64,000 bases of DNA from the sequence record NC_054917.1, one strand, 5' to 3'. Positions 54,909 through 62,270 of this stretch are shown here, in pieces (position 1 is the stretch's first letter; each line of letters begins with the position of its first letter). The stretch comes from Escherichia phage vB_EcoM_G50. A program made the position numbers and the translations under genes. The notes below the pieces were generated by a model that did no database searches, had not been told where the DNA came from, and worked only from the letters and a program-made list of their open reading frames with translations.

Positions 54909-54930
54909 ATGGGGACCGAAAGGTCCCCAT
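54909..54930. terminator. bidirectional stem-loop ATGGGGACCGAAAGGTCCCCAT
   Basis: Perfect hairpin plus T-tract between convergent gene 54 (+) and ORF 54935..55225 (-). Confidence 0.6.
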
Positions 54931-54934
54931 ATTT

Positions 54935-55225
54935 TTATTTACGGAATGAAATAAAAGCAGCAACTGAAGCAACTAAACTGTCTTCAATATAAACTTCAAT
55001 TTTTACCGGAGCTTCTGACTCAAATTTACCTGTTACTACACCTTGGAAAATACTTTCAGTCTGCTCTGGCTTTGAAAAATTTTCAGAAGGAAAAATTCCG
55101 AACTTTTTATCTGTTCCAAAAATTTTGATAAATTCATCGTAAACTGCTTCATTAAAAGCATTATCAGCAGGAATAACGCCTTCAACTACAAGTTCTTGAC
55201 CTAAAAAGCGTAAAGAAGATTTCAT
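54935..55225 (-). CDS. hypothetical protein (96 aa)
   Basis: ORF downstream of the alt genes. Confidence 0.5.
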   Translation of the reverse strand: MKSSLRFLGQELVVEGVIPADNAFNEAVYDEFIKIFGTDKKFGIFPSENFSKPEQTESIFQGVVTGKFESEAPVKIEVYIEDSLVASVAAFISFRK

Positions 55226-55285
55226 TTTGTGTTCCTCATGTTATGTAAGTAAAATTATTATAACACAACACGAGGGACTTGTAAA

Positions 55286-57343
55286 CTACATTTTGAACTT
55301 TTTAGACATTCCGTTGATGTTAACCAAAGAAGCCAAGATTTGAGAAACTTCGTTTTCCTCTTCTTTTGATTCTTCTACAAGGAATTGATTAAATCCAGCC
55401 ATTGGACGAACTTCACCAGTTTCCATCAGATGATCGCCATCATATACCGATTCTTCTAATTGTTCAGAAGGAGGAACGATTGTGCCTTCGATTAAATACT
55501 TGTTATAAGCAGTTTCTTTCATCATGTACGTGCTCACTTTATTAATCTTCAGCAAAATTCCACGCGGTAAAATAACTTCAGCTTCTGATGGAAATCCTGA
55601 TAAATGACCTGGAACGATAACTTTGATTCGCTCAGCTCCTTTTATTACCATACCTACGCTAGTTTCAGCATCTTCATTAGCATATGCGGAATGACTACCC
55701 GTATGCATTAAATCTTCAGCATCAACTGAACCTTCTCCTTCACCAGAAAATACTGCACTGGAATCATCTAGGGCCATATAGTTTTTACCATACTCACCGA
55801 AGATATTTGGTTTAAGCGATGTGGATACGAAGTTCTTGAAATAGAACATTTTATTTTCAATATTATGACGTAAAGTTTTAAAGGTAACTTCTTGTCCACG
55901 GTAAAGTGTAGTTCCTGGAGGAAGAACTGATCCTTTGGCAAAGGCAGAATCCATTGTCTCGATGTGTTTAATAGCTCGTTCCATGTATTCTTCACGGGTA
56001 GAATCTGGTTTACCCAAGAGGAACGAGTTCATTTCAACATATGAATCTGCACAATAATCTTCAATTACATCGGACTCAGCCTGAGTTAATCCTTTTGGGG
56101 GTACTTCAGTACTTGCATATTCATACGCTTGAGAAGCAGACTCATTAATCAATTTATAAATGCCATTCATGACAAATTGAATAATAGCTACCTTTTCATC
56201 TGGCGTGGCTTTAGAACCTTTAACTAAATCATTGACAATTTTCTTAATAACATCAAAGCTATTAGAAATATTAATGTCAGCGAGATCGCTTAAAATTTTA
56301 TCAGTTTTATAATCAAAAAATTCTTTATTCTTTAAATATTCCTGAGAACCTTGATATGTTATATCGCTCTGTAACTTGATAGATGGATCACGTAAACGTG
56401 CATGAGCCAATGCAATATGATTTCGGAAGCTTTCTAATTCATAATCGCTAGATTTAAAACGAGAAGCACTTCTCATACCACCGATAGCTCCTTTGCTGAA
56501 GTTTGAACCAACCTGAATAACGCCAGAGTTCATTGGTCCTTCTGCTTTATATACCGGAACTTTAGATTCAAACTCTTGATATTTCTTAGCAGCGAAGCTA
56601 TCACCCTGAAGTGAAGCATCGACAGTAGAATATTGAGCTTGTGCTGCTAATCGACGACTAATTTTAGTTTTCTGAATAACAGCTTGATCCGTACGCTTAT
56701 CATTTTCTAAAGCAATAGAAGCAGCAACAGCAACAGCTTTAGGAACAGCATTACCTGTTTTAACGTCTACATAAACATCACCAACCTTTGATTCAACCTT
56801 TGTGAATAACTCAGTTGAAATAGGAGGTACACCTGGAATGTCTTCTAAATTGGCATTTTTACGGTAAACCATAATATATGTGTACTTTTTATCGTAATCC
56901 CAGATTTCCTTTAAAAGAACATATCGACCTGCTCCTTTAGTACGCACTAAACGATCGGCAATAACTTGCATTTGACGAGCTGCACCGTTTGTTTTACTCT
57001 TTAATACGCGGAATAGGCATGCGTCAATTTTGTACTGTTTCATTGTCTGAAGAGCAGTATCAAAAACCGCATTAATGACACCAATTGGATTTCCACCTAA
57101 GTTTTTAAGTTTAACTAATGATAGTTTCTCATTAACGCCTATCATTACGATATGCATCATTTTATCGCCTGGCTTAACGTTTTTATTTGTATCACCGCCA
57201 GAGGTGTATGTACAAAATCTAAATCCAGGAAGCACACTTTCTTCACCGGCTTGAATAGCAAAAATTTGAGGTATTTTATGCTTAGGATTTAAGTTAACAA
57301 CCGGCGCCGAAGCGCCGTCAAATAATTCTGTAATAAGTTCCAT
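55286..57343 (-). CDS. Alt-family ADP-ribosyltransferase paralog (685 aa)
   Basis: N-terminus MELITELFDGASAPVVNLNPKHKIPQIF... parallels the upstream Alt; ART-like motifs FVSTSL (S-T-S) and EAEVILPRG (E-x-E). Confidence 0.75.
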   Translation of the reverse strand: MELITELFDGASAPVVNLNPKHKIPQIFAIQAGEESVLPGFRFCTYTSGGDTNKNVKPGDKMMHIVMIGVNEKLSLVKLKNLGGNPIGVINAVFDTALQTMKQYKIDACLFRVLKSKTNGAARQMQVIADRLVRTKGAGRYVLLKEIWDYDKKYTYIMVYRKNANLEDIPGVPPISTELFTKVESKVGDVYVDVKTGNAVPKAVAVAASIALENDKRTDQAVIQKTKISRRLAAQAQYSTVDASLQGDSFAAKKYQEFESKVPVYKAEGPMNSGVIQVGSNFSKGAIGGMRSASRFKSSDYELESFRNHIALAHARLRDPSIKLQSDITYQGSQEYLKNKEFFDYKTDKILSDLADINISNSFDVIKKIVNDLVKGSKATPDEKVAIIQFVMNGIYKLINESASQAYEYASTEVPPKGLTQAESDVIEDYCADSYVEMNSFLLGKPDSTREEYMERAIKHIETMDSAFAKGSVLPPGTTLYRGQEVTFKTLRHNIENKMFYFKNFVSTSLKPNIFGEYGKNYMALDDSSAVFSGEGEGSVDAEDLMHTGSHSAYANEDAETSVGMVIKGAERIKVIVPGHLSGFPSEAEVILPRGILLKINKVSTYMMKETAYNKYLIEGTIVPPSEQLEESVYDGDHLMETGEVRPMAGFNQFLVEESKEEENEVSQILASLVNINGMSKKFKM

Positions 57344-57346
57344 GAT

Positions 57347-59443
57347 TTATCCTTGAACGAACTTGTAAGGCATGTTTGTAATATCTATGCAAGACGCAAT
57401 AATTCCAAGAGATGATTCTACTTTCTGTTTAACATTTGATGAAACAAACGATGCAAAGTCAACTCTGTCTTCTATTTCAATATCATCTGTCATTGCAACT
57501 ACTTCACCGGTTTCCATTAGACGGTCACCGTCATAAATGACTGATTCGGTGAGCTCTTCTGTAGTCATAACTTCAGCTTGAATGAGTTTTGTATTATTAG
57601 ATGTTGTTCCGTCATTATTAGAAGCATCAGTTATTTTATTAACTTTGACCATCAATCCGCGTGGTAGAATAACTTCAGCTTCTGTTGCTATTCCGAGACT
57701 TCCTGGATATACAACATTAACTTTATGAGCTCCATCAATTGCCCATCCTATTTGAACTTTAACGTATTCAGGATTTTCTTTATACGCTCTTATTTCGTTT
57801 GGATTAATAGTTATTCCTTCTTCATTTTTATCAACTGTTAATTCATTACGAGCTTCTGGTTCTAAAAGACCAATACCAGCATGCGTAATTCCAAAACGTC
57901 CAAAAATGATAGGAGTTAAAGAAGTAGATACAAAATTTCTGAAATAGAACACTTTATTTTTAACTAGCGCTTCGTATATAGGAGCAGTCATACTTTGAGC
58001 ACGATAAACTGTAATGCCTTCTGGTATACGGTCACCATTTTCAAAAGCTGAATCTAAATTATTTATCGCAGATTCAATTTCTTTTTCACTCATTACATCA
58101 TATCGTTCTGGATTGTAGCGGCCTAAAAGAAGATTATTGATGTCAGTATATCCTGATCCACAATACTCTCTAATGCCGCGCTTTTGTGATGGAGTATATT
58201 TAGAACCATCACGGGCAATAGTAATATCAATCATTGGACCTGCACCAATTCCAGAAAAGCTATAAATCATTCGTTTGAGGAATTTAGTTTTTGCTGCGTT
58301 CCAGGAATTTTTAGTTATTTCTTCCCAGACTTCATCTGGCTGTCCTTTACGGGTTTTATTATGTTTATCAAGCCAATTATCTTTATATTCTTCAAAGAAT
58401 TGATTAACAGCTGCTGCGTATTTCTCTAAACATTTTATTGAAGTGGTTGGTTCATTTTTAATCGCATTAAGAATTACATCTTTAATTTTTTCAGAAACTT
58501 CATTAACCTCACTTTTTGAAAAGAATTTATAGTCATAGTGAAGTTCATCTGCGGTTCCTTCGGCAATGATTTTTGCTGCCTTAGTTTTAGAAGCTAATGA
58601 ATTAATTCCAAGCTTCATTTCTTCTGCTTCGGGAATTAAAGGAGCTGTAGCAGGTTTATTGAAATTAGCTGCGGTAGATTCATATTTCTGGAATAATTCA
58701 CTTTCAAATCTAGAAGATTCCAATGACTGACTTTGCGCAATTGCTCTACGGGAAATTTTAACTTTAACGATTACAGCTTGGTCAGAACGTTTATCGTTTT
58801 CTTGCGCAATAGATGCCGCAATTGCCTCATTTTTAGTTACTTGAGCTCCAGTATCTTTATTGATATAAACATCGCCGACTTTCGATTCAACTTTAGTAAA
58901 GAGCTCGGTACTAATTTCCGGAACTCCTGGAATGTCTTCTAGTGATACATTTTTGCGATGTATAAGAATATATGCATACTTTTTATCGTAATCCCAGAGT
59001 TCCTTAAGAAGGACGTATCTGCCACCTGAACGACTGCGGATAAGTCTATCAGCAATAACTTGAATTTGTCGAGCTTGACCAGCAGTTTTAGACTTAAGAA
59101 TACGAAGCATACAGGCATCAATTTTATACTGACGCATCGTTTGCATCGCAACAGTAAAAACTGAATTGATGTAATTAATTGGGCTTGGACCGAGACCTTT
59201 CAATTTAGCAATTGAACCTTTAGCAGTTAATGTAAAAGGAACAATGTGCATCATTTTATCGCCCATCTTTAGATCACGGTTAGTATCACCTCCAGATGTA
59301 TAGGTACATAAACGAAAGCCTGGTTGTTCAATTGCGTCATCAACATGAACTGAAAAAATTTGCGGTATTTTCTTCTTTGGATTTAAGTTTGTAATCGGAA
59401 GAGTAGTATCTTCGTCAAATAATTCTGTAATGAGTTCCATCAT
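57347..59443 (-). CDS. alt: NAD-protein ADP-ribosyltransferase Alt (head-packaged, injected)
   Basis: 698 aa; MMELITELFDEDTTLPITNLNPKKKIPQIFSVHVDD... matches recalled T4 Alt; motifs R, FVSTSL, EAEVILPRG. Confidence 0.85.
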   Translation of the reverse strand: MMELITELFDEDTTLPITNLNPKKKIPQIFSVHVDDAIEQPGFRLCTYTSGGDTNRDLKMGDKMMHIVPFTLTAKGSIAKLKGLGPSPINYINSVFTVAMQTMRQYKIDACMLRILKSKTAGQARQIQVIADRLIRSRSGGRYVLLKELWDYDKKYAYILIHRKNVSLEDIPGVPEISTELFTKVESKVGDVYINKDTGAQVTKNEAIAASIAQENDKRSDQAVIVKVKISRRAIAQSQSLESSRFESELFQKYESTAANFNKPATAPLIPEAEEMKLGINSLASKTKAAKIIAEGTADELHYDYKFFSKSEVNEVSEKIKDVILNAIKNEPTTSIKCLEKYAAAVNQFFEEYKDNWLDKHNKTRKGQPDEVWEEITKNSWNAAKTKFLKRMIYSFSGIGAGPMIDITIARDGSKYTPSQKRGIREYCGSGYTDINNLLLGRYNPERYDVMSEKEIESAINNLDSAFENGDRIPEGITVYRAQSMTAPIYEALVKNKVFYFRNFVSTSLTPIIFGRFGITHAGIGLLEPEARNELTVDKNEEGITINPNEIRAYKENPEYVKVQIGWAIDGAHKVNVVYPGSLGIATEAEVILPRGLMVKVNKITDASNNDGTTSNNTKLIQAEVMTTEELTESVIYDGDRLMETGEVVAMTDDIEIEDRVDFASFVSSNVKQKVESSLGIIASCIDITNMPYKFVQG

Positions 59444-59463
59444 ATCCTCTCTAGTGTTTATTC

Positions 59464-59471
59464 TATTTATA
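59464..59471 (-). promoter_or_regulatory. T4 late promoter TATAAATA (alt)
   Basis: Plus-strand tatttata about 20 nt upstream of alt start. Confidence 0.5.
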
Positions 59472-59492
59472 AAATTAAAGGCCCGAAGGCCT

Positions 59493-59681
59493 TTAATAAT
59501 CTAATGGTAAGAGAGTACGATATATTTCAAACTTTGGACCTTTTTCATAGGCATCAAATGTTTCTGTGAATTTATTATAAGCATATGCATCTATAAATTC
59601 AATCATAATTTGTGATACAGAAGTAGAAACATCTCCACCTTCTTTTTGAGCAACGACAATTGTTTCTAAGTAAGCTTTCAT
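59493..59681 (-). CDS. hypothetical protein (62 aa)
   Basis: ORF with stop/start overlap with ligase gene. Confidence 0.45.
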   Translation of the reverse strand: MKAYLETIVVAQKEGGDVSTSVSQIMIEFIDAYAYNKFTETFDAYEKGPKFEIYRTLLPLDY

Positions 59682-61141
59682 AGACCAGTTACCTCATGAA
59701 AATCACCAAATACATCCTCGAATGTATTAGCTTTAGTTTTATCTTCACGTAAACGAATCGCAATCGGAAGAAATAATTTAACGTAATCAGTGCGGCCATC
59801 AGATTTTAACCAACCGTTGCATTCGCACTCTAGAATTTTTCCAATATAATAATTTTGGTTTTCCATAATGCGAGTACGGTCAAGTTCATGCGATTTTACA
59901 CCGGCTTTATCTTTTAAGCCTGAACCTGCATTTACTTTAATTTTTCCACACTCTGATTCAAGAATAAATCCACCAGCTTTAGTAGGGTCTTTACGGTGAG
60001 GATAAATTCCTACAATTTTTAAATCAACATCAATTACTTCTTTAAATTTATAGAGATTTTTTGAACGAGCATTTTCCCACAATCCGTCGGTATTTTTGAG
60101 AATAATACCTTCAAAACCTTGGTCAATATATTTTTTATAAATTACCTTAGCTTCATCTAGGTTATTTACTACTTGGTTTTCAATTAAAATTACTTTATCA
60201 TATCCTGATGTCATTTGTTCTAGTTTAGAAAAACGTACATCATATTTTAAACGAAACGCCGGAAGACCGTATATTTCTACCAACGGGACATAATCCCAGA
60301 CCTGAAACTTCATGCATTTGGCTTCTTTTTCGGAAATGGTTCCTTTTAAGGATTTATTAGCGATTCCATTAGAAGTAGTACGAGATTCCGCTACTTCGGC
60401 GAATTCTTTAGCTTTACTAATTTCAGGATAAGCATCAAAAAGAAAATCTAGGCCTTCTGGTTCCTTTTTAACTTGCTCATGGTATACCAATTCGCCATCA
60501 ATTAACACACCTTCTGGATGAATCTGGCGGGCTTCAGCAGTCATTTTGATTAATTCTTCCTTAAGAAGATCTAATCCTAGATATTCATTACCAGCTCGTG
60601 ATAAAAGACGAACATCATCTAATTCATCACCTCGAACTTCAGCAAAACACCGAGATCCATCTGCTTTTAACTGTGCAAAAGCTGGAAACTTGATATTCTT
60701 ACTAATGCCTTTTTCATCATAAGAACTTGCCAGCATTTGAGGTTGTTCAGGAATTAAACCTGGCCAAACTTTGTTTGCAATAGATACTGAAGCACCGCAT
60801 TCAAGGTCTCGCATCATCACTCGACGCAAAACTTCAACATCATCCTTTTTACCATCGGTGATATATCCAGTCAATTCCTCAATTGCAGCATTTCCAGTCA
60901 ATTTCCGAGTAGCTAACGTGAATTCAATGAAGTCAAGCATATCGGTAATAGTCAGCATTCCAAAACTCTGGGTAGCAATACCAGGTTTAGGCCATTTCTT
61001 TATATAATACTGTAACCCACGAGAATAAGTCAGACGATATACCCGTTTAAGCAATTCATTATCTTTATTCTTTTCAAGAATTGCTTGCTTCTGCTTAGTT
61101 GATCCAATAGATGCTATTTCATTCAGAATTTTAAGAATCAT
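59678..61141 (-). CDS. 30: ATP-dependent DNA ligase gp30
   Basis: 487 aa as in T4; adenylation motif KADGSR. Confidence 0.95.
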   Translation of the reverse strand: MILKILNEIASIGSTKQKQAILEKNKDNELLKRVYRLTYSRGLQYYIKKWPKPGIATQSFGMLTITDMLDFIEFTLATRKLTGNAAIEELTGYITDGKKDDVEVLRRVMMRDLECGASVSIANKVWPGLIPEQPQMLASSYDEKGISKNIKFPAFAQLKADGSRCFAEVRGDELDDVRLLSRAGNEYLGLDLLKEELIKMTAEARQIHPEGVLIDGELVYHEQVKKEPEGLDFLFDAYPEISKAKEFAEVAESRTTSNGIANKSLKGTISEKEAKCMKFQVWDYVPLVEIYGLPAFRLKYDVRFSKLEQMTSGYDKVILIENQVVNNLDEAKVIYKKYIDQGFEGIILKNTDGLWENARSKNLYKFKEVIDVDLKIVGIYPHRKDPTKAGGFILESECGKIKVNAGSGLKDKAGVKSHELDRTRIMENQNYYIGKILECECNGWLKSDGRTDYVKLFLPIAIRLREDKTKANTFEDVFGDFHEVTGL

Positions 61142-61407
61142 TGTTCATCCTTCAGAGTTTGATTTACAGCTCTATTATAAATCAATTCATCATTAAGCTC
61201 AGGCAAAGACTTATGATATGTAGTTCTAACTTTATTTCCTTGCATCCAGTGCTTGACATAAATGAAACCTTGCTCTACACATTTTTTAAAAATTCGTTCG
61301 TCTTTTTGAGCTCGGAATTCTGGATTGCATCTAAAAAATTGATTTACGTGACCGTAATCACGTGTAGTATTACCTTCATTTTCATAAATAGTGTGAACGA
61401 CAAACAT
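61138..61407 (-). CDS. hypothetical protein, 30.1-like (89 aa)
   Basis: ORF immediately upstream of ligase, overlapping termini. Confidence 0.55.
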   Translation of the reverse strand: MFVVHTIYENEGNTTRDYGHVNQFFRCNPEFRAQKDERIFKKCVEQGFIYVKHWMQGNKVRTTYHKSLPELNDELIYNRAVNQTLKDEQ

Positions 61408-62270
61408 TAGAATGCTCCTTGGAAAATATTATCACCACTAGTAAATCTATTAAAATACCCTGCATCGCCAGGCTTGGTATAACTCCACGTATGGAATGGA
61501 TTCATATGATATGGGTGTGTATAATATGGATTATATGGATGTGTATAATATGGATTATACGGATTAAATCCAGGAGTTCTCCAGGTAGTGTTCCAACGAA
61601 AAGAATCGTTTTTAACCATCTTCTCAATTACATCTTTTATAGCTTTTTCACTATCAAAACTTTCTTTATTTTCCTTTGGTGAAAAAAGCTTATTTTCTAC
61701 ATCATTCCATGTATAAACTCGCTGAGCGGTTTTTGGAATATTGTCACGCTCTCCTCGCGCCATCCAATAAACAGGAACATTTAATATTTCACTCGCATGA
61801 TCGCAATGGTGAGCGAGATCGTCAATGTAACAAATTACGTTATATTTCTCTTTTGCCTTTTTGAACAACTCTTCTTTTGAAGAATCATGACCACACATCA
61901 TTACTTCTGAGAAGGCACCAGGAAAAAGAGCATTCAAATTAAATTGACGATTCAACAGAGCGTCAATAGAATCACCCAATGCTGTAACAGCTACAAAATT
62001 ATAATCTTCTTTTAATTTGTTAATTACACACAGGGCATCTTTATACGGAGACAAATAACGAATAAAATCTGAACGATTGTATTTTTCAATTAACTTGACG
62101 CCAAGTTCTTCATCACAATTAAAGAGTTTACCTGGAGAAATAAATTTCTCATCTTGGATCATTTTTAAAATATGTTCTAACGGAAGATTATATTTCTGAG
62201 CAAAATAAGGAAGGCCTGATTGCCAGCTTAAACATACTCCATCAATATCAGTTAAAATAGTAGGCTTCAT
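61407..62270 (-). CDS. HAD-like hydrolase with Tyr/Pro/His-rich C-terminal repeats, 30.2-like
   Basis: 287 aa; N-terminal HAD motif I LTDIDGV; C-terminus NPYNPYYTHPYNPYYTHPYHMNPF. Confidence 0.6.
   Translation of the reverse strand: MKPTILTDIDGVCLSWQSGLPYFAQKYNLPLEHILKMIQDEKFISPGKLFNCDEELGVKLIEKYNRSDFIRYLSPYKDALCVINKLKEDYNFVAVTALGDSIDALLNRQFNLNALFPGAFSEVMMCGHDSSKEELFKKAKEKYNVICYIDDLAHHCDHASEILNVPVYWMARGERDNIPKTAQRVYTWNDVENKLFSPKENKESFDSEKAIKDVIEKMVKNDSFRWNTTWRTPGFNPYNPYYTHPYNPYYTHPYHMNPFHTWSYTKPGDAGYFNRFTSGDNIFQGAF
61511..61558 (-). repeat. 24-bp tandem repeat (2 copies) in C-terminal coding region
   Basis: atgggtgtgtataatatggattat / atggatgtgtataatatggattat, one mismatch; encodes NPYYTHPY units. 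Confidence 0.85.

Follow-up and report, generated by a model that had tools for sequence, protein, structure and literature searches.

A close described counterpart of the locus examined here is the alt region of phage T4, whose ADP-ribosyltransferase (ART) Alt (gpAlt, NP_049811, 682 amino acids) is cut at ITE-6 and LTE-619 by gp21, the prohead protease, as mapped by mass spectrometry (PMC5694885). About 40 Alt copies are present in the T4 head and are ejected together with the DNA (PMC9026906). The T4 record (NC_000866) gives the order 54, alt.-3, alt.-2 (67 amino acids), alt.-1 (61 amino acids), alt, alt.1, and 30, and describes alt.-1 and alt.-2 in a note as an 'old duplication of the first part of gene alt'. 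We analyzed a window of 64,000 nucleotides (nt) from Escherichia phage vB_EcoM_G50 (NC_054917.1), to which all coordinates refer. The source of the window is a Tequatrovirus, and the locus represents the complete form of the alt region, with two genes present as open reading frames (ORFs) on the minus strand. These are alt, which is orthologous to T4 alt by position (57347-59440, 697 amino acids, or 57347-59443, 698 amino acids), and alt2 (55286-57343, 685 amino acids, starting MELITELFDGAS). Alt residue numbers count from the ATG at 59440. We consider it likely that the two genes form a late alt-alt2 unit encoding two arginine-specific mono-ADP-ribosyltransferases, with Alt2 packaged like Alt and directed at different targets.

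Duplicated alt genes have been recognized before. The T4 ORFs alt.-1 and alt.-2, together with ORFs of RB49 and 44RR, were described as paralogous alt duplications, one of them full-length (Nolan et al., 2006; PMC1524935). Tandem Alt paralogues elsewhere in Straboviridae include 44RR ORF187c/188c, IME08 'altb', those of WG01 and MX01 (three copies), and those of Merlin, which are likewise adjacent duplicates (PMC1524935 and genome records), but they belong to different genera (Dhakavirus-type for IME08, WG01, and MX01) and are 45-49% identical to Alt2. Within Tequatrovirus, full-length alt2 is named alt.-2 in RB14, RB32, and RB51, RefSeq labels both genes 'Alt-like RNA polymerase ADP-ribosyltransferase', and phages of the BASEL collection carry 'ADP-ribosyltransferase Alt' and 'Alt2'. 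Hundreds of genomes already have the alt-alt2 pair in their annotation, a discussion of it dates from 2006, and as a sequence feature it is nothing new.

Family membership, catalytic motifs, and selection

The first-pass annotation of the window had proposed two adjacent Alt-family ORFs of ~690 amino acids, separated by 3 nt, sharing colinear R, STS, and E-x-E motifs, diverging in the central region, and preceded by a late promoter. Each of these elements was recovered in our analysis, from ORF lengths of 697/698 and 685 amino acids on the minus strand to a spacer read as TAA-ATC-ATG and the promoter motif TATAAATA at 59464-59471. Both proteins matched Pfam PF03496 (ADPrib_exo_Tox; E=2.7e-20 and 1.8e-37), with 73 bits for Alt2 and 129 bits for Alt at a cut-off of 23.4, and both matched phrog_802, 'Alt-like RNA polymerase ADP-ribosyltransferase', from end to end (E=2.8e-255 and 3.1e-272; residues 1-685 and 1-696). 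Together with their location at the T4 alt position, these matches support the assignment of both ORFs as full-length Alt-family ADP-ribosyltransferases. The precomputed Pfam family PF26846 was also listed for all homologues.

The catalytic residues were found in both proteins. In Alt, they correspond to R480 (58001-58003), S505-T-S507 (57920-57928), and E587-A-E589 (within 57674-57691), and in Alt2 to R482 (55898-55900), S507-T-S509 (55817-55825), and E587-A-E589, the latter as part of the F584-P-S-E587-A-E589 segment (55577-55594) that includes the ADP-ribosylating toxin turn-turn (ARTT) loop. When 14 diverse homologues were aligned, the arginine, the S-T-S motif, and the E-x-E motif were invariant and in the same order, and the fold was assigned as an ART fold. 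The catalytic-domain fold and these three motifs are common to the Alt proteins and to the C3, VIP2, iota, and Vis-type R-S-E mono-ADP-ribosyltransferase toxins (PF03496), and arginine specificity is associated with the E-x-E form, which both Alt and Alt2 carry. Identity to these toxins is just 14-25%, however, and the Alt family differs from them by an extra N-terminal domain of ~235 residues, a helical middle, propeptides removed by protease, and delivery from the capsid rather than by secretion or as a binary toxin.

An AlphaFold2 model of Alt2 (mean predicted local distance difference test score, pLDDT, of 73) placed an alpha/beta N-terminal domain at residues ~11-235, a helical middle at ~250-470, the ART domain at ~475-625, and a tail that is disordered from residue 629 onward. 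When Alt2 was searched by sequence against solved structures, no match was returned, so that no experimental Alt-family structure was available for comparison. Both products would belong to the R-S-E clade as arginine-specific mono-ADP-ribosyltransferases and would share the architecture of T4 Alt, consisting of a 6-residue N-terminal propeptide ending in ITE, an N-terminal domain of conserved alpha/beta type, a helical middle that varies, the C-terminal ART domain, and a C-terminal tail that would be removed after L-x-E.

Cleavage motifs were present at the sites aligned with those mapped in T4. Alt has ITE-6 (59423-59431) and LTE-632 (57545-57553), and Alt2 has ITE-6 (57326-57334) and LEE-631 (55451-55459), the latter aligned to LTE-619 of T4 Alt. 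E6 and E631 were invariant columns of the alignment, and the downstream context S-x-YDGD-x-L-x-ETGE was kept in 14/14 homologues. The predicted disorder of the Alt2 model begins at this second cleavage site, as would be expected of a propeptide.

Among the window, T2, RB14, Bas39, and CrRp10, the pairwise ratio of nonsynonymous to synonymous substitution rates (dN/dS) was 0.02-0.06 for Alt2 and 0.02-0.10 for alt, so that purifying selection on Alt2 is as strong as on alt, and the 685-amino-acid Alt2 ORF was intact in 5/5 of these genomes. The possibility that the second ORF is a degenerate copy lacking catalytic residues, which the first-pass annotation had kept in view, was rejected: the motifs are intact, and the low dN/dS values together with the retention of both prohead-protease sites mapped in T4 indicate that Alt2 has not decayed.

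Aligned end to end, Alt and Alt2 were 40% identical (E=3e-161). Identity was 67% over residues 1-238, fell to 16% in the middle region (239-415), and was 34% in the ART domain (416-628). The ARTT loop also differed, given that the position three residues before the first catalytic glutamate is F584 in Alt2, isoleucine (I584) in the window Alt, and proline in T4 Alt. The same position is aromatic (Y/F) in Alt-like proteins of other genera and is Ile, Pro, or Gln in the T2-type/T4-type Alt lineage. In C3 and iota-type toxins, an aromatic residue at the corresponding ARTT position helps substrate recognition. Given the strong divergence of both the middle domain and the ARTT loop, Alt2 probably modifies a set of targets different from that of Alt. 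Alt2 also shared more identity with the Alt-like proteins of JS10 type and KM16 type (46-52%) than Alt did (33-40%). This greater closeness to Alt-like proteins of other genera, together with the canonical ARTT aromatic residue, suggests that, of the two, Alt2 may be nearer to the ancestral form of the family.

Distribution of alt2 and its remnant in T4

The window pair occupies the position of T4 alt, with gene 54 and alt.-3 on one side and alt.1 and gene 30 on the other, on the strand opposite the baseplate genes. T4 Alt and the window Alt are positional orthologues with 70% identity, the same flanks, and the same terminator and TATAAATA motif, and they share the ITE-6 and LTE cleavage motifs as well as the R, STS, and E-x-E motifs. 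Alt2 is colinear with T4 Alt over its full architecture, but at 42% identity it represents a paralogue that is not intact in T4.

Whether T4 also carries a second Alt-like gene had been left uncertain in the first-pass annotation. Our comparison answered this point: T4 has the remnant ORFs alt.-1 and alt.-2 but no full second gene. T4 alt.-1 (NP_049810) corresponds to Alt2 residues 1-56 with 95% identity, and T4 alt.-2 (NP_049809) corresponds to Alt2 residues 62-116 with 98% identity; the two were compared with window positions 56996-57343. PHROG families 23015 and 15247 matched Alt2 more strongly than Alt. T4 has a break in the reading frame near codon 57 and a deletion of the counterpart of window positions 55306-56995 (1.69 kb). 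The 95-98% identity to Alt2 residues 1-116 and the absence of this segment indicate that alt.-1 and alt.-2 are the recently decayed remnant of a full-length alt2, apparently produced by a recent frameshift and a 1.69-kb deletion, and not an old partial duplication as stated in the T4 record.

The window alt gene itself differed from T4 alt in an uneven manner. Residues 1-245 were identical at 244/245 positions, while identity was 31% over residues 246-420, 58% over 421-600, and 88% over 601-697. The nonsynonymous divergence (dN) of alt from T4 was 0.21, compared to 0.003-0.013 among T2-type alleles. Relative to T4, the window alt therefore looks like a mosaic in which the middle and catalytic domains were exchanged in a cassette-like allelic replacement. 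Both allele classes of alt occur beside Alt2, as Bas35 has a T4-type Alt of 683 amino acids together with Alt2.

In a megablast search, 540 phage records matched the region, nearly all of them Tequatrovirus; the best was 97.8% identical, and 355 covered at least 80% of the query. The segment that is absent from T4 was found in 400 records at 93-98% nucleotide identity, including T2, RB5, RB14, RB18, RB32, RB51, and BASEL phages, and 401 records had a copy of the Alt2 protein at 90% identity or above. The alt.-2 or Alt2 gene of T2, RB14, RB32, RB51, Bas35, Bas37, and Bas39 is the same gene as in the window, encoding 685 amino acids and starting 3 nt after alt. Compared to the window, these copies were 94-98% identical at the nucleotide level and 97-99.6% at the protein level, with only allelic differences (dN ~0.01).

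Transcription signals and neighboring genes

The last 12 kb of the window follow the T4 gene order, with genes 29, 48, and 54 on the plus strand and alt.-3, alt2, alt, alt.1, and gene 30 on the minus strand. The T4-type late promoter TATAAATA upstream of alt (59471-59464 in the direction of transcription) was detected by motif search, has the same motif and place in T4, and lies 21 nt from the first ATG of alt. Although this motif occurs 22 times in the whole window, compared to 9.9 copies expected by chance, the one upstream of alt was the sole copy within ~10 kb on either side. The late-promoter motif search found no second late promoter for alt2 between alt and alt2.

The alt stop codon TAA (57349-57347) is followed by the spacer ATC (57346-57344, minus strand) and the alt2 ATG (57343-57341), leaving a gap of exactly 3 nt in the region sequence TCGTTCAAGGATAAATCATG, and an AAGGA Shine-Dalgarno sequence for alt2 sits within the final codons of alt. 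From this gap, and with alt2 having no promoter of its own, we infer that alt and alt2 are co-transcribed. The single late promoter would yield a bicistronic alt-alt2 message, on which alt2 would be translated from the ribosome-binding site inside the end of alt.

The start of alt consists of two consecutive ATGs (MMELITELFDE from 59443), as in T4. The gene is annotated with 697 amino acids in T2, RB14, and PP01 and with 698 in Bas37 and Bas39, and the 6-residue propeptide ending at ITE-6 agrees with the second ATG.

On the upstream side, a terminator-like hairpin read from the sequence, AAAGGCC-TTCG-GGCCTTT with a T-run (59477-59494, minus strand), is located downstream of alt.1 and immediately ahead of the alt late promoter, and is also present in T4. 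It is preceded in the direction of transcription by the DNA ligase gene 30 (59678-61141, minus strand) and alt.1 (59493-59681, minus strand). On the other side, a strong sigma-70-type early promoter with an extended TG, (G)TTTACA-17-TATAAT (55257-55285, minus strand; 11/12 consensus matches), drives alt.-3. This promoter directly abuts the stop codon of alt2, and the late alt-alt2 unit thereby has its 3' boundary here.

The neighboring gene alt.-3 (54935-55225, minus strand) encodes a DUF5498 protein of 96 amino acids (PF17602, E=1.4e-64) and not an ART. When six phages were compared, its dN was close to zero. T4 evades the CmdTAC defense system through C-terminal read-through extensions of Alt.-3 (PMC11618068). 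Between the convergent genes 54 and alt.-3, a perfect hairpin with a 9-bp stem (ATGGGGACC-GAAA-GGTCCCCAT, 54909-54930) scored as a terminator on both strands. Beyond gene 30, a gene 30.2-like ORF (61407-62270, minus strand) encodes 287 amino acids, compared to 837 nt and 278 amino acids annotated for T4 gene 30.2, and its C-terminal part holds a short tandem peptide repeat (NPYNPYYTHPYNPYYTHPY).

Proposed packaging and targets, and alternative explanations

Under the reading we favor, Alt2 would be incorporated in the prohead core like Alt, would lose both of its ends to cleavage by the gp21 protease, and would be injected with the DNA into the host cell, where it would use NAD+ to ADP-ribosylate host proteins that differ from the targets of Alt. 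Several observations weigh against this reading. The searchable literature yielded no report of Alt2 in virions, of Alt2 activity, or of an Alt2 target, and contained just annotation tables and a transposon class. L/I-x-E motifs are short and there are seven of them in Alt2, so the conservation of two is suggestive and not proof. Confidence in the Alt2 fold model is moderate, with an input of just 14 sequences. Moreover, phages in nature can do without alt2: T4 and 90 others have the T4-type deletion junction in common (91 records, including natural isolates), and phage sutha has an independent, different alt2 deletion that leaves a stump ORF of 38 amino acids annotated as Alt-like, which points to recurrent loss of the gene.

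Transposon sequencing of Bas37, which has the same pair as the window (Alt2 of 685 amino acids and Alt of 698), classified Alt2 (bas37_0032) as 'Intermediate', with 116/164 TA sites hit, a class that could reflect polar or technical effects, and Alt (bas37_0033) as 'Non-essential', with 164/179 hit (HIDEN-SEQ preprint, bioRxiv 10.1101/2025.11.20.689424, supplementary file 8). These data hint that Alt2 contributes to fitness, a protein that the preprint does not take up. The same preprint reports that T4 Alt aids evasion of Mokosh type I and that Bas37 Alt is no substitute for it (10.1101/2025.11.20.689424), and on the basis of these results Alt alleles are functionally distinct. We considered whether the protein tested against Mokosh, bas37_0033, might be Alt2, and rejected this because the annotation table of the preprint lists bas37_0033 as Alt and bas37_0032 as Alt2.

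An active but unpackaged Alt2, made late and acting on host or phage proteins in the already infected cell, would fit its place as the distal cistron and the lack of direct evidence for Alt2 packaging. It would also fit the composition of the T4 head, in which no second species was counted beside the ~40 Alt copies, although T4 lacks Alt2 anyway. We nevertheless regard this explanation as improbable. Strong purifying selection has kept the MELITE propeptide, the N-terminal domain with its 67% identity, and the L-x-E/SxYDGD context at the C terminus, whereas ModA and ModB, the T4 ARTs of the infected cell, are small early proteins without such features (PMC10468400).

Slightly less probable in our judgment is that Alt2 is a redundant back-up of Alt that modifies the same targets, among them Arg265 in the alpha subunit of RNA polymerase, and is kept by dosage or drift alone and hence often lost. 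The deletion of alt2 on at least two occasions, at the T4-type junction and in sutha, and the good growth of T4 without it agree with such redundancy. However, beyond the N-terminal domain the identity of the two proteins is just 16-34%, their ARTT loops differ, the dN/dS of Alt2 speaks against drift, and ~400 records retain the intact gene. Redundancy is also hard to reconcile with the finding that even Alt alleles are not interchangeable, given that Bas37 Alt did not replace T4 Alt against Mokosh type I. That Alt2 is a pseudoenzyme, a core protein with a structural or regulatory role and no catalytic activity, had nothing specific in its favor, and we consider it very unlikely. A packaged Alt2 with targets of its own is the reading that we retain.

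Taken further, Alt2 could be another effector delivered from the capsid, with host targets of its own and a possible anti-defense function, and perhaps the more ancestral form of the family, a broader proposal that we put forward only tentatively. The analogy for such a function is T4 Alt, which acts on MazF and counters Mokosh type I. T4 has no intact alt2, and the gene has therefore been left aside in most studies of phage ADP-ribosylation; if the proposal is true, an injected enzyme of most T-even phages would have escaped study because the model phage had lost it. T2 and ~400 sequenced relatives have an intact alt2 that is under strong selection and has every sequence hallmark of a packaged enzyme. 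The repertoire of injected ARTs would then differ among T-even phages, which would matter for their sensitivity to defense systems, for host takeover, and for studies of the ADP-ribosylome.

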